From the NCBI RefSeq assembly GCF_044324875.1, contig NZ_CP172185.1: a stretch of DNA of 64,000 nucleotides; one strand, 5' to 3'. Positions 43,014-55,000 of this stretch are shown piece after piece (position 1 is the first letter of the stretch; each line of letters starts with the position of its first letter). The DNA is from Escherichia coli (GTDB lineage: Bacteria > Pseudomonadota > Gammaproteobacteria > Enterobacterales > Enterobacteriaceae). Made by a program: the position numbers.

Positions 43014-46000
43014 TAATTACACTGTGGGTTGACGCCGGAAGAATCAGAGAACAGATACCGTTCTTACTGTAAAACGTGGCTAATATTAATTGAGCACTGC
43101 AGTGTTCAGAGCACAAAGAAGAAAAAAGATGTGTGCGAATGCCTGTAATGTGTTAAAAGAATGTTCCGCGTTTCCGGTACGCTTTTCGTAACTAACAATG
43201 CAGGGTGACGTAACGCTGGTTGTGCCGGAAACGCGTCCCTCCCCCTATCTTTCCTGTTTGGATTTGCCCCTATATTTCTGGATTATCCGACAAAACCGGC
43301 GTGAAGTATTACTCTCGTCGCCCAGCACCATAAGGATAACGCCCATAAAATCATGAAACTTTTCTTCCAGATTGGATACAATCAGGCCGAAACGGTGATG
43401 AATATTATCCAAATCTGATGGTTCGTAGCGTTTTCAGCCCCCAGATTCTGAGTTGCCTGTAGGGATGATTTCAATTCCCGATTTGTCTATCGCATAGAGA
43501 AAAAGAATTTCATTTCTGTTCACCAGAACCCATGTAACCCACTCCAATTCGTTATTTATCTCACTGATTGCCCTTCATTTATCTCATTGATGCACCGAAA
43601 GGTAAAACTGCCATCCGGTGCATCACGCTCGATGCATCAAATCCTGATAAATCCCCGTCAGTATTCCTTGTAAGCTAAATTCTCTTTTTATCCACTGAGT
43701 GACTTGACCGCTTGCCGAATGCCTGGTTGCCAACAGCATTCGTGAATCCTGACGTGGGTTGCGGATCTGCCGTGTCACCAGCAATGACTTTTCCATCGCT
43801 TCACGCACCATATAGTCTGGCAGAAAACCGATTCCCTCCCCCAGGATCTGGCACTGAAGCTTAGTATTAAAGTCGGGAACCAGAATCGACTCTTGCCCGT
43901 GTAACAGCCAGCCGACTTTTTTGTTTATAGTGTTTGCAGTGTCTTCCACCATGATGTTCGGGTACAGACGTAACTGACTCTCAGAAATGGGCTCAGGAAT
44001 AAACGCCAGCGGATGAGCCGGAGAAATCGCGAACAACCAACGAATCATGCCGATTTCAATGTAATCAATTCCACCACCGTCCAGTAACGTATCGGGCGCG
44101 CCAATGGCGATATCAGCCTGGTTATTAATGAGTGAATCCCAGACGCCATTATACACCTCTGTAGTAATAGCTATCTGGCAGGTTGGAAAGTGTTCCCTGA
44201 GCACTTGCAGAAGCCGAGCTGTATGCTGAGGGGTATACAACAGTTGATTAATACAAATGCGCACCCGGGATTTAATTCCCTGAGCGATGGCATCAACTCT
44301 ACGTATGATGGAGTGGTAATCGTTGAGCAGGTCAGTTGCTTTGCAAAAAAGGTAGTGCCCGGGCTCGGTCAGCTCAATGCTACGGGTAGTTCGGGTAAAA
44401 AGCACCACGTCAAGCCCCATTTCCATACGCTTGATAGTGTAACTAATTGCCGATGTGGTTAAGCCCAGTTCCTTCGCCGCCTTGCTGAAACTTCTATAGC
44501 GGGCAGCCATAGTAAATGCCAGTAAGTTTTCTTCCGTAAATATTGAATTCATCTTTCTTTCCTCTGGCGACAATACACATACACAACATGATGATTGTTG
44601 AATGTATTTGTAATTCTTATAACCGGCAATCAGTTTTGAAAAAATTAACACCGTATTTACATTTAATTTGAAGGAAATCACACATCTGAATTTTAATTAC
44701 AGGCAGCTATCCGTGCTGCAGACCACCTTTATTTATATGACTGCGGATTAATGGCTAAAATATCCCAGCTATAATAGAAATATTGCACTATATCACACTC
44801 TCTTATTATTGTTAATTTTGTTTCAATAATTCATGGTCTAATGATGAGTAAATTTTAAATGGATGGTGCTCTATGCATTCTATTGCTATTCTTGGCTTGT
44901 TATATTTGTAAAATCTTAAAAAGAGCAGGAGATCGATTATGTCCAATAAAGAACTCATTACAGAATTTCTGCTGGCGGCAGAACAAGGTAATGCCGATGG
45001 ATTAAAATCATGCCTTGATAAAAAGGTTGATATTAATGCGACTAACCGCGAGGGGCGTACTGCAATTATTATTGCCAGTCTGAATAAACATTATGACTGC
45101 GTTTCTTTATTGATTTCCGCAGGTGCTGATATTAATAAACAAGATCAAACTTGTTTTAATCCCTTCCTGATTGGCTGCCTGAATAATGATTTAACACTGT
45201 TGCGTACGGTATTACCGGCTAACCCCGACCTTAATTGCCTAACCCGTTTTGGCGGTGTTGGTATTACACCTGCCTGCGAAAAAGGCCATGTCGAGATTGT
45301 ACGTGAATTGCTGATGCGTACTGATATCAATGTCAACCATACTAATTTTGTTGGCTGGACGCCGCTCCTAGAGGCCATCGTGCTGAATGACGGCGGTGAA
45401 AAGCAGCAGGAGATCGTCAAACTGTTGCTTGAGCATGGCGCAAACCCGCACATGACGGATAAATACGGTAAAACCCCGCTGGAGCTGGCGCGAGAAAAAG
45501 GCTACCACAAAATTGCCGAGTTGCTGATTTCGGCTGGAGCCTGACAACAGGAGCACGATTATCGCTATATTATCACGGCAATCTTTTCGGGCACTAACCG
45601 CAGACTGCGCGTTTCTCACTTTTCGGGGAATGGGCCAGGTTGAACAGGTTTTTTCCCATGCGGTAAATCTGTTAATACCTGAACAGCAGCGACTGCTGAC
45701 GTTACTGAGTGAGGATTGTGATAACGCACCTAACAGTTGTCGTTTAGCACTGACACATTATGAAGACCTTTTTCACCCCGGTGAACAGGTCAATTTTAGC
45801 GGGTCTGGAATAACTGTTGGAAATGATAAATGGATAGAAATAACCGGTTGTCAGATGTGGCGAATACCACGGTGGACATCTGATTCAGCAAGCCTTGCCA
45901 AAGTCGGCTGGCAGCACTGGGAAGAGTTTATCCGCCAACAACTAAGAAGCAACGACACATTATTTCTGTACCAGGGTGACAATCCATTTTATCAGGAAAT

Positions 46001-52000: not shown

Positions 52001-55000
52001 GGCACTGCGTGGCGAAACAGGCACCCATATTATCCACTCCCAAGAGGAGACGTAAATTAAGGAAAGCGACCGCCGCCGTGAATTTTTAATGTTCATTGCA
52101 GATTATCGTGGGCTGGAAATGATAACGGTTGGGGAGTTATTGTTTAGTTGCTAAAACAGAACGATAACCAACCCCAACCGTTCTCAATTTCGAATACTAT
52201 CTTTTCCATTTATCTCTGGATAGGCTTTGACGTCGTCCCTACTGAGTAAAATCCCCCTCATCATCCACCTAAAACCGATTGAAAACGGTCATTACTCTTG
52301 TGGCAAACAGGCTAAAGCCGTTCACGATGCTTCACTTCGCACCTTATCGTAATGAACAATACTGGTATTTCCAGTTCAGTTACGCCTACCCGTCTACCGC
52401 ATTCTTTGCCCTAACTACGGCATAGTTCGGGATTATATCAGCTGGCTAAAGCCTTATGCTCATCAGACCACATGACTCATTGAGCATGTTGAGGCGTTAC
52501 TCAAAATCTTGCCGATTAAACATATTTCGTAATTTCTTACCCTGCACTAACATATCATCAATACTATCGACAAACGTCAGTTGCAAATAGAGGTCACAGG
52601 GTCTGATTGATGTACTGTCAAGGCCGGGTCATGAAAGAGTTTGCCCTGTTCAAAGCTCATCGTTACGCACCGTCGTAGCCGATGCGGATACTCATCAATC
52701 CTCTGGATAGGTGAGGTGCGTAGTAGAGAAGCTCGGTCGTTTTTCGTTAATCTGAATCAGTACTGTCAACATATTCAAGTCGTTAATATGGATATGAATA
52801 CCTCCTTTGACCTAGAGGTACAGATGCACTACCCCCCAAGCTGTCAACGACGGATGAAAAGTGGCTCTTCCGCAACCTGGATGGAGATTTTCATGCCAGT
52901 GGACTCATGACCCTCTGCCTGAGTAGTTCAAATCCGGCTCGACCATACATCTGGCCTTTCAGCATTTTTAGCCAATTTACATGACTTTCGACCACCCCCC
53001 ATTATTCCAGCGACTGCTGATTGCCTCACATATAGCCGCAGCATCAGCTACCATCCTTGCAGCCACGCGCCGAAGTTACCACTTTCTCGTTGCTCTTTTA
53101 ACCACTCCCTCCATGGGTCCAGAAGTCCTCGCTCTGGAGGCCGGGTTGACATTTCAGGGAATGTTCCTGAACACACCCAGAGACTGACTGTCACACGTGA
53201 TAAGCCTGTAATACGGGATAAGCCTGTAATACGGGATAAGCCTGTAATACGGGATATTTCCCCTGAACCCACATCCCTTGTTATGTAGTGCCATAACCTC
53301 TGTCCAACGCTGATGCCGTTTTTGGCGGGTTTGCTGTTTAAGGCGTTCCGGACGACGGAGTGAACCGCCCCGGGAATCCTGGAGACTAAACTCCCTGAGA
53401 AAGAGGTAAACAGAATGACTAAAAATACTCGTTTTTCCCCCGAAGTCCGTCAGAGGGCGATTCGTATGGTTCTGGAAAGTCAGGGCGAATATGACTCACA
53501 GTGGGCGGCAATTTGTTCCATTGCCCCAAAGATTGGCTGTACACCGGAGACTCTGCGTGTCTGGGTACGCCAGCATGAGCGGGATACCGGAGGCGGTGAT
53601 GGCGGGCTCACCACCGCTGAACGTCAGCGTCTGAAAGAGCTGGAACGTGAAAATCGTGAACTGCGCCGCAGTAACGATATCCTTCGCCAGGCTTCCGCTT
53701 ATTTTGCGAAGGCGGAGTTCGACCGCCTCTGGAAAAAGTGATGCCACTGCTGGATAAGCTGCGTAAGCTGTACGGGGTCGGACCGGTATGCAGTGAACTA
53801 CATATTGCCCCGTCAACGTATTACCACTGTCAGCAACAGCGACATCATCCTTATAAACGCAGTGCCCGTGCGCAGCGCGATGACTGGCTGAAGAAAGAGA
53901 TACTGCGCGTATACGATGGGAATCATCAGGTATACGGTGTGCGTAAAGTCTGGCGTCAGTTGTTACGGGAAGGAATCAGGGTAGCCAGATGTACAGTGGC
54001 GCGCCTCATGGCGGTTATGGGACTTGCCGGTGTTCTCCGGGGTAAAAAGGTCCGCACTACCGTCAGCCGGAAAGCCGTTGCCGCAGGCGACCGCGTAAAC
54101 CGTCAGTTTGTGGCAGAACGTCCTGACCAGTTGTGGGTGGCTGATTTTACTTACGTCAGCACATGGGAGGGGGTCGTCTATGTGGCGTTCATCATTGATG
54201 TGTTTGCCGGATACATCGTGGGGTGGCGGGTCTCATCGTCTATGGAAACGACATTCGTGCTGGATGCTCTGGAGCAGGCGTTATGGGCCCGTCGACCGTC
54301 CGGCACAGTCCATCACAGTGATAAAGGTTCTCAGTATGTATCGCTGGCCTACACACAGCGGCTTAAGGAAGCCGGATTACTGGCATCAACAGGAAGTACT
54401 GGTGACTCGTATGACAACGCGATGGCGGAGAGCATCAATGGCCTTTACAAAGCGGAGGTAATACACCGTAAGAGCTGGAAAAACCGGACAGAAGTGGAGC
54501 TGGCCACACTCACGTGGGTGGACTGGTATAACAATCGACGATTGCTGGAAAGGCTGGGCCATATCCCACCGGCAGAAGCAGAAAAATCTTATTATGCTTC
54601 CATCGGAAACGATGATCTGGCAGCCTGAGTTCACAGATAAAACACTCTCCAGGAAACCCGGGGCGGTTCAGAGCGATGCTACAGGCACAGACAGTACTGG
54701 CTTAGGTGATTTCTTTGGTGACAACCCACTGGCAACAAGACGTATCAGAGGCATCTGTCTGTACATCATTCGTTCAGGCGCATCGCCAATATTTTTTAGC
54801 AGGTGCCATCGATCAGCTATCTGTCTGGCCTGAGGTGCACCTTCACGTGCTGCTGTCGCATAGACTCCGCCACGGTCACGTGAGACAACCTGTATTTCCG
54901 GATATTTTCTGAACCAGGTCGCCAGCGTACTCTGATCGCAACCGGGAAGCAGGACGAGGGGACGGTGAGTATCAAGATTGACAATTAACGTGCCGTAATG

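Follow-up and report, generated by a model that had tools for sequence, protein, structure and literature searches.

Where does a second set of yah genes in Escherichia coli come from, and what might it do there? In this species the yah genes have long belonged to the 'y-genes' that still await characterisation. A 64,000-nucleotide stretch of E. coli DNA (the window; RefSeq assembly GCF_044324875.1, contig NZ_CP172185.1) carries, at positions 43,623–52,055, a gene for a LysR-type regulator and a divergent six-gene operon in the order yahD, yahE, yahF, yahG, transporter gene and yahI. An initial annotation, made from the sequence alone, implied that this was the K-12-type yah locus. Judged from its DNA alignments, the block is instead a xenologous second copy, a segment horizontally acquired from a Citrobacter-like enterobacterium. 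By analogy with the allantoin regulon, we think it fairly probable that this is a foreign, mobile and nearly complete Yah-type module for a ureide, working through uptake, phosphorolysis and ATP formation.

A second yah copy of foreign origin

The 8.5-kb segment at 43,595–52,089 aligns by blastn in one colinear piece, at 84–85.5% DNA identity, to the yah operons of Citrobacter youngae, C. braakii and C. werkmanii. The alignment begins 28 bp past the LysR stop codon on the left and ends 34 bp into yahJ on the right. Identity to K-12 DNA is 69–89% and comes in four separate pieces. The encoded proteins are 74–96% identical to those of the Citrobacter operons (94–95% for the transporter) and 53–93% identical to their K-12 Yah orthologues, as against just 38–46% for AllS, AllF, AllG and AllK. 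The Citrobacter operons also hold the same intergenic control blocks, but unlike the window copy they have a full yahJ and a chromosomal setting. At 85% identity, none of the sampled Citrobacter species is the actual donor.

The native K-12 genes yahB–yahJ (b0316–b0324) encode orthologous proteins in the same order. They differ from the window copy in having yahC between yahB and yahD, a repeat-filled 'yahH' gap at the position of the transporter gene and an intact yahJ after yahI; no yahC and no full-length yahJ occurs anywhere in the 64-kb window. The block thus departs from the native locus in DNA identity, in its site (betT–pdeL … yahK for the native genes) and in its yahC/yahH/yahJ content. 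The initial annotation also missed the mobile setting, since the block lies between insertion sequence (IS) fragments in a mosaic island and is found on ColV/IncF plasmids as well. In K-12 the yahG–yahI gap (positions 9,745–10,165 of record L003, annotated yahH) holds no remnant of a transporter gene. It contains 12-mers recurring about every 93 bp, and the yahH stretch is matched at a median of 24 sites in each E. coli genome; such dispersed repeats point to a REP-like array rather than a gene remnant.

Gene content and kinship with AllFGH

An open reading frame (ORF) scan together with Pfam and NCBIfam searches assigned the genes from the LysR regulator to the kinase, and the proteins were compared with those of K-12 and the All system by BLAST. 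Seven intact ORFs were found, one on the minus strand and six on the plus strand, and six of the seven match Pfam or NCBIfam families with scores well above the curated cutoffs; the seven ORFs had been correctly located from the sequence alone. The minus-strand gene (43,623–44,552) encodes a 309-amino acid (aa) YahB-like LysR-type regulator with HTH_1 (PF00126) and LysR_substrate (PF03466) domains, 84% identical to K-12 YahB and 39% to AllS. Its top NCBIfam matches, AllS and PunR, are both below cutoff; with 268 bits where the AllS model requires 372, the protein does not qualify as an AllS equivalog. This gene had been recognised, but with a GTG start at 44,681 giving 352 aa; we place the start at the ATG at 44,552, which is preceded by the ribosome-binding site GAGGAAAG, because the YahB alignment begins and cross-species conservation falls off there.

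The first gene of the plus-strand operon (44,939–45,544) encodes a 201-aa YahD-like ankyrin-repeat protein (Ank_2, Ank and Ank_4; 72% identity to YahD). The YahE-like, AllH-family subunit (45,630–46,478; 282 aa) scores 81.1 bits with PF11392 (AllH), above the gathering score; it is 53% identical to K-12 YahE and gives no BLAST match with AllH. It is followed by a 515-aa YahF-like subunit of the AllF/FdrA family (46,438–47,985), which carries CoA_binding and Ligase_CoA domains, reaches 489.7 bits with NF004760 against a cutoff of 433 and is 83% identical to YahF and 38% to AllF. The 472-aa YahG-like, AllG-family subunit (47,985–49,403) scores 300.8 bits with PF06545, again above the gathering score, and is 90% identical to YahG and 46% to AllG. 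Downstream lie the gene for a 516-aa transporter (49,516–51,066) and that for a 320-aa YahI-like carbamate kinase (51,093–52,055), an AA_kinase protein that scores 629 bits with NF009007 against a cutoff of 266 and is 93% identical to YahI and 38% to AllK. From yahD through yahI the spacings are 85, −41, −1, 112 and 26 bp: the yahE-like and yahF-like genes overlap by 41 bp, the yahG start overlaps the yahF stop by 1 bp, and 26 bp separate the transporter gene from the kinase gene. By sequence, the module has the make-up of an AllFGH-type carbamoyltransferase with its kinase, namely an AllF protein above cutoff, adjacent AllG and AllH proteins and a carbamate kinase in the same operon.

The parallel drawn initially with the fdrA/ylbE/ylbF/carbamate-kinase set holds well; that set is now allFGH–allK, in which the oxamic transcarbamylase AllFGH uses phosphate to split oxalurate into oxamate and carbamoyl phosphate and the catabolic carbamate kinase AllK makes ATP from the latter (PMC11326118, PMC9843812). 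Both systems have the same three subunit families (AllF/FdrA, AllG/DUF1116 and AllH/DUF2877) followed by a carbamate kinase, as well as an AllS-like LysR regulator. The gene order is F-G-H in the allantoin regulon and H-F-G in the window, and the window system has in addition an ankyrin protein and a dedicated transporter with the predicted UraA fold, joined in the ancestral operon by a probable periplasmic deaminase. A stretch of about 45 residues forms the C terminus of F in the AllFGH system and the N terminus of G in the window: YahG residues ~7–53 (window 47,985–48,150) match the AllF C terminus (record L004, 18,200–18,348), and F and G measure 515 and 472 aa in the window against 555 and 419 aa in the All system. 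This match indicates that the segment was shifted across the F/G gene boundary between the paralogous systems, an apparent shift that fits an F–G complex. A simple motif search for the GHAG phosphohistidine motif of the succinyl-CoA-synthetase type found it in neither YahF nor AllF. On these comparisons the module is best classed as a Yah-type system with transporter, mobilised and truncated, that is AllFGH-type but not an AllFGH orthologue.

Such kinship raises the possibility of a redundant oxalurate system, doing the same job as allFGH–allK with an oxalurate importer added. The three shared Pfam/NCBIfam subunit families and the carbamate kinase, the regulator's top NCBIfam match to AllS and the organic-anion and oxalate carriers among UraA-fold proteins would all suit it. 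We nevertheless consider it unlikely, as the identity to AllF, AllG and AllK is low and YahE has no BLAST match with AllH; the Yah clusters have conserved partners of their own (ankyrin protein, transporter and YahJ) that are absent from the all regulon; and the retention of both sets in K-12 speaks against plain redundancy. With only 38–46% identity to AllF and AllG, oxalurate specificity is not transferable to the Yah proteins.

A further accessory set of this kind, resembling yahEFG, is carried by the tkt1 genomic island of APEC O1/BEN2908 (PMC3349570, PMC12928451). Like the window module, it gives avian and extraintestinal E. coli accessory AllF, AllG and AllH proteins together with a carbamate kinase. 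It differs in having an isochorismatase-family hydrolase, an NCS1 (CodB-like) permease and an AH_C-domain protein, in lacking the ankyrin protein and the window-type transporter, and in F and G proteins only ~42–45% identical to those of the window. Both types of set stand side by side in Avibacterium paragallinarum (record L013, 5,487–19,721), where set 1 is Yah-type (LysR, Ank, F, G and a window-type transporter) and set 2, like that of the tkt1 island, comprises LysR, isochorismatase, F, G, an AH_C protein, an NCS1 permease, AllH and a carbamate kinase; the two apparently share one kinase and one AllH.

A transporter with a predicted UraA/SLC26 fold

The gene that sets the module apart from native E. 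coli encodes a full-length protein, as had been supposed at the outset: its 516 aa compare with 514–517 aa in homologues. Searches with the single sequence gave no Pfam, NCBIfam or PDB match, nor did a profile search of the PDB. Xan_ur_permease (PF00860) is hit by none of 39 family members at E <= 1, and weak precomputed matches to it occur in more distant relatives only. Close homologues (62–95% identity) extend from Enterobacterales to Brevibacillus and Paenibacillus. Their annotations ('xanthine permease', 'AGZA family') are source names, and almost none comes with a Pfam domain. An alignment-based AlphaFold2 model (pLDDT 84.8, pTM 0.81) has about 14 helices and two short strands, at residues 85–87 and 303–305. 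In Foldseek it matches SVCT1, prestin, BicA, SLC26Dg, UraA, AZG2 and UapA with probability 1.0 and TM-scores of ~0.45–0.5. The predicted fold is that of a 7+7 inverted-repeat elevator transporter (UraA/SLC26). Fold and synteny thus agree with the original label 'permease', whereas no curated family supplies it.

The profile of the family gives a weak match to the AzgA-type adenine carrier AdeQ (E = 1.1e-3 over 117 columns, transmembrane segments (TM) 8–11), and no match to the NAT-type carrier YbbY. The AdeQ alignment pairs GNPFPVTVYVGHAGWK with GTS-SVTAYIESTSGV, and hhalign sets VTVYVGHAG of the transporter opposite VTAYIESTS of AdeQ. The window transporter has the 7+7 inverted repeat and the short strands in TM3 and TM10 in common with AzgA/NCS2 carriers and the UraA/SLC23/SLC26 fold. 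The Glu-Ser motif in TM10 of AzgA proteins is a substrate-binding motif, and at this point the window protein differs: AzgA carriers have 'T-x-Y-I-E-S' in TM10, whereas it has 'T-V-Y-V-G-H' and no Glu-Ser pair. From the model and the profile we predict a secondary transporter, on a branch that is deep and uncurated and has the AzgA group as its nearest neighbour.

A membrane protein of this fold might serve something other than substrate import, exporting a product or carrying an inorganic anion (bicarbonate or carbamate) in the manner of SulP and BicA. Its top structural matches do include the bicarbonate/sulfate carriers BicA, SLC26 and SiSulT, and a pathway of the kind proposed below gives off CO2 and NH3 and uses phosphate. 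The closest sequence signal, however, is an AzgA-type purine carrier and not SulP, the STAS domain is absent, and the NCS1 allantoin-permease-like carrier of Brevibacillus operons suggests traffic in organic ureides. An antiporter exchanging substrate for product would in any case be compatible with uptake, and we regard a non-importing role as very unlikely.

A conserved neighbourhood across genera

Is the link between this transporter and AllFGH-type genes peculiar to the window? A one-genome-per-species scan and look-ups of single homologues, searched with reference proteins, yielded 89 loci that span Proteobacteria and Firmicutes. A carbamate kinase gene lies beside the transporter gene in all 89, an AllG-like gene in 88/89 and an AllF-like gene in 86/89; the three loci missing an AllF- or AllG-like gene all end at a sequence boundary there. 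Equally frequent is an ankyrin or ankyrin-TPR protein (86/89), followed by a LysR or PucR regulator (80/89) and a CodA-like amidohydrolase (74/89).

In enterobacteria the canonical order is a divergent LysR gene and yahD-E-F-G-transporter-I-J. The ancestral enterobacterial operon is yahD-E-F-G-permease-I-J, from which native E. coli lost the permease gene and the window copy lost yahJ. Variants occur elsewhere: Bosea, Azospirillum, Ramlibacter and Paenibacillus have a 410-aa ankyrin-TPR fusion in place of YahD, and Brevibacillus has a PucR regulator, an additional allantoin-permease-like NCS1 carrier and a small CDA-fold deaminase instead of YahJ. The operons of Enterobacter, Leclercia, Lelliottia and Silvania are missing yahE, with a gap of ~106 bp between the ankyrin gene and yahF (loci L009/L010 (6,926–7,033), L026, L029–L032, L035, L041–L043, L045–L049, L051, L053, L056 and L073), and the third subunit may therefore be dispensable or supplied in trans. 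Operons naturally without yahJ are found in Aeromonas allosaccharophila, Herminiimonas/Janthinobacterium, Pantoea sp. A4 and Providencia rustigianii.

A search of 1.84 billion representatives with the transporter profile returned 451 clusters at E <= 1e-30. Among relatives of <50% identity three were sampled, and two of them lie in a PucR-transporter-isochorismatase-AllH-AllF-AllG-kinase cluster or beside an isochorismatase-family hydrolase. In distant genomes, the DNA on either side of the cluster showed unrelated regulators and transporters but no further conserved enzymes. The neighbourhood counts and these distant relatives indicate that the link between the transporter family and AllFGH-type enzymes is general and not a local accident. 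It had already been suggested that this cluster encodes a carbamoyl-compound pathway complete with importer and LysR regulator, and a transporter tied to AllF- and AllG-like genes and a kinase across phyla is in keeping with that idea.

A proposed pathway and its weak points

How might these proteins work together? In the pathway that we favour, the transporter would import a small carbamoyl (ureido) compound and might release its de-carbamoylated product in return. A complex of YahE, YahF and YahG, with the ankyrin protein as partner or scaffold, would then pass the carbamoyl group to phosphate, and YahI would convert carbamoyl phosphate and ADP to ATP, NH3 and CO2. Homology to AllFGH and the invariant presence of the kinase lead us to infer phosphorolysis, of a carbamoyl compound different from that used by AllFGH. 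Arginine/ornithine and agmatine/putrescine antiport occur in other carbamate-kinase pathways, and by analogy a precursor/product exchange by the Yah transporter is plausible.

Ancestrally, YahJ, a Tat-exported amidohydrolase of the cytosine-deaminase type, would act in the periplasm, turning an amino or imino precursor into the transported ureide. The YahJ sequence begins with an SRREFL-bearing Tat (twin-arginine) signal and keeps the CodA residues HxH, H-x-x-E, His247, Asp314 and Gln157; the protein is listed as Tat-related (PMC7549933). Export signal and catalytic residues together suggest that YahJ is probably a periplasmic deaminase that produces the transported ureide. As to the substrate, self-contained minimal clusters, PucR- and AllS-like regulators and the isochorismatase-type neighbours of related transporters lead us to a guess, and a tentative one, of a small N-acylurea of the oxalurate or biuret type from purine or urate breakdown.

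Several features weigh against this picture of a working import and phosphorolysis module. The missing Glu-Ser pair means that a purine or nucleobase substrate is not to be assumed for the transporter. With YahE poorly conserved (53%) and missing from Enterobacter, Leclercia and Lelliottia, the subunit composition of the enzyme is uncertain. The loss of yahJ means that the module may be incomplete, and its position among decayed IS elements means that it could be a passenger without current selection. Finally, the 112-bp gap ahead of the transporter gene holds a GC-rich hairpin with a 10-bp stem (49,410–49,432, plus strand). There is no T-run on the plus strand, and from its sequence the hairpin does not look like a strong terminator; the same yahG-transporter junction measures 11 bp in Enterobacter.

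Control region and substitution rates

The divergent genes are separated by an AT-rich control region of 386 bp (44,553–44,938; 31% GC) with conserved non-coding blocks at 44,593–44,614, 44,645–44,688, 44,782–44,830 and 44,842–44,895. The blocks are kept in Citrobacter, Trabulsiella, Yokenella, Serratia, Buttiauxella and Aeromonas. They hold a repeated half-site, ATTGTTGAAT, and in relatives a dyad, ATTGTTGAA..TTCAACAAT; half-sites and dyad are plausible candidate sites for the LysR protein. A sigma-54 promoter was considered for the TTGCAC-N5-GCACA block and rejected, as the invariant GG of the −24 element is missing. Rfam searches of the window region and six distant loci found no riboswitch.

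In comparison with C. braakii, dN/dS is 0.03–0.21 for all seven genes. The highest value, 0.21, belongs to YahE, the least conserved protein of the window module.

Lost yahJ and the mobile flanks

What became of yahJ can be read from the right end of the module. Plus-strand positions 52,056–52,089 are a 34-bp, 11-codon remnant of its 5′ end, with the start ATG mutated to ATT and a translation of IKESDRRREFL, where YahJ of K-12 and Citrobacter has MKESNSRREFL. Homology to both ends at 52,089. The loss of a gene downstream of the kinase had been anticipated, and that gene is yahJ; the debris recognised behind the kinase (52,056–53,360) likewise resolves into the yahJ remnant, orphan DNA and part of an ISL3-family pseudogene. 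The orphan DNA (52,090–52,840) is non-coding and travels with the module. It is found at >=80% coverage in 121 E. coli genomes only, all of them module carriers, and the annotation of L001, one of two colinear records (L001 and L002), places a transposase fragment in it at 52,629–52,836.

Beyond it lies a frameshifted ISL3-family transposase pseudogene on the minus strand (52,892–53,360 and 54,671–55,444; annotation of L001/L002), which is unbroken in L001/L002 and split in the window only, by an IS3-family insertion sequence (53,361–54,670, plus strand). This 1,310-bp IS629/IS1203-like element, absent from the site in L001/L002, has inverted repeats TGAACCGCCCCGGG, a 3-bp GAG target duplication and an ALIL frameshift pseudoknot at 53,696–53,812 (116 bits). 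Size, inverted repeats, target duplication and pseudoknot place it in the IS3 family (IS629/IS1203 group). RefSeq labels its ~95%-identical relatives 'IS1203 family', and the name IS629 given to it initially lacks a reference comparison. Just before the insertion point, at 53,195–53,256 within the ISL3-family pseudogene, there are 3.4 tandem copies of an 18-bp unit, ACGGGATAAGCCTGTAAT. The 1.31-kb element occurs in the window twice in full and once in part (238–1,084, 6,001–7,313 and 53,361–54,670), and its repeated copies could mediate rearrangement or excision of a ~46-kb interval that includes the yah module.

On the left flank, a partial IS3-family transposase fragment mapped by blastn (42,307–42,937, plus strand) is frameshifted in L001/L002; IS fragments thus border the module on both sides. 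The start of this fragment overlaps a sub-threshold Rfam match to the Hfq-binding small RNA isrC (42,298–42,380; 30.8 bits against a gathering score of 39). Farther out, the upstream neighbours are a SPATE autotransporter gene, AbgT, ROK, ABC and phosphodiesterase genes and sodC; downstream lies a gene for a YadA-like adhesin. A tellurite-resistance (ter) island with TerD-family, vWA and StiP-type genes occupies positions 1–21,500 of the window, joined to the SPATE/AbgT/ABC/sodC segment through IS66 and IS21 elements.

Distribution on plasmids and chromosomes

How widely has the module spread? The transporter gene is present in 141 of 5,426 complete E. coli genomes, every copy at least 99% identical, at 107 plasmid and 45 chromosomal places. 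In these 5,426 genomes no native yah locus carries any version of the gene. The permease had been described as intact here; it is full length, but it is not an unbroken allele of the native locus, as all 141 carriers have the mobile allele. A plasmid collection contains the module at >=99% in 70 records, and the 86 matching records in all come from Escherichia (81) and Klebsiella (5), 78 of the 86 being predicted conjugative. The carriers are mostly conjugative IncF/ColV plasmids, among them pAPEC-O2-ColV (NC_007675.1). When carrier records were sampled evenly (40 rows), about half proved to be from poultry, which is a raw share and not an enrichment statistic. The module genes have been in GenBank since pAPEC-O2-ColV was deposited and are annotated in hundreds of public records; a search of a literature collection found no paper describing the module or characterising the yah genes. 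At 8–9 kb upstream of the module, pAPEC-O2-ColV also has a 'cytosine permease' gene and a second LysR gene (record L095, 1–1,454), two genes that could be left over from a further ureide or pyrimidine cluster.

Of the 5,426 genomes, 5,035 (93%) contain the native yahH-I-J segment. Going by this overall prevalence, rather than carrier by carrier, most carriers of the module probably hold both the native and the mobile copy.

Could the module simply be a passenger in decay, a remnant without function that IS-rich islands and ColV plasmids carry along, its pathway broken when yahJ was lost? A yahJ cut to 34 bp, IS debris and orphan DNA at both flanks, and E. coli copies so alike (all >=99% identical) that there has been too little time for selection within the species to become visible, are what such a remnant would show. 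Against it stand seven full-length ORFs with dN/dS of 0.03–0.21 relative to Citrobacter and retained regulatory blocks. Otherwise identical operons naturally do without yahJ in Aeromonas, Herminiimonas, Janthinobacterium, Pantoea sp. A4 and Providencia rustigianii, and a chromosomal yahJ is in any case present in 93% of E. coli genomes. We give this explanation a low probability and prefer that of a nearly complete ureide module.

Implications for the Yah system

Native loci keep yahJ without the transporter and the mobile module has the reverse, so that the two copies are complementary. In a more speculative extension, which we think rather improbable, the mobile module and the native locus would be complementary halves that together restore a pathway for a ureide derived from oxidised purines or urate, with candidate compounds of the oxalurate, biuret or amidino type. 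If true, this would give avian and extraintestinal E. coli a private source of nitrogen and ATP in the uric-acid-rich bird gut or in inflamed tissue, and would explain the absence of a yah phenotype in K-12.

For the Yah family as a whole, the paralogous allFGH genes were assigned a function only in 2024. The complete Yah system adds to this enzyme type a dedicated transporter from a family without a curated model, a conserved ankyrin partner and usually a Tat-exported deaminase. The transporter is missing from laboratory E. coli, which is a plausible reason why no yah phenotype is seen in K-12. As ColV-type virulence plasmids and pathogenicity islands carry the module, whatever substrate is identified for it would count as a candidate niche factor of avian and extraintestinal strains.

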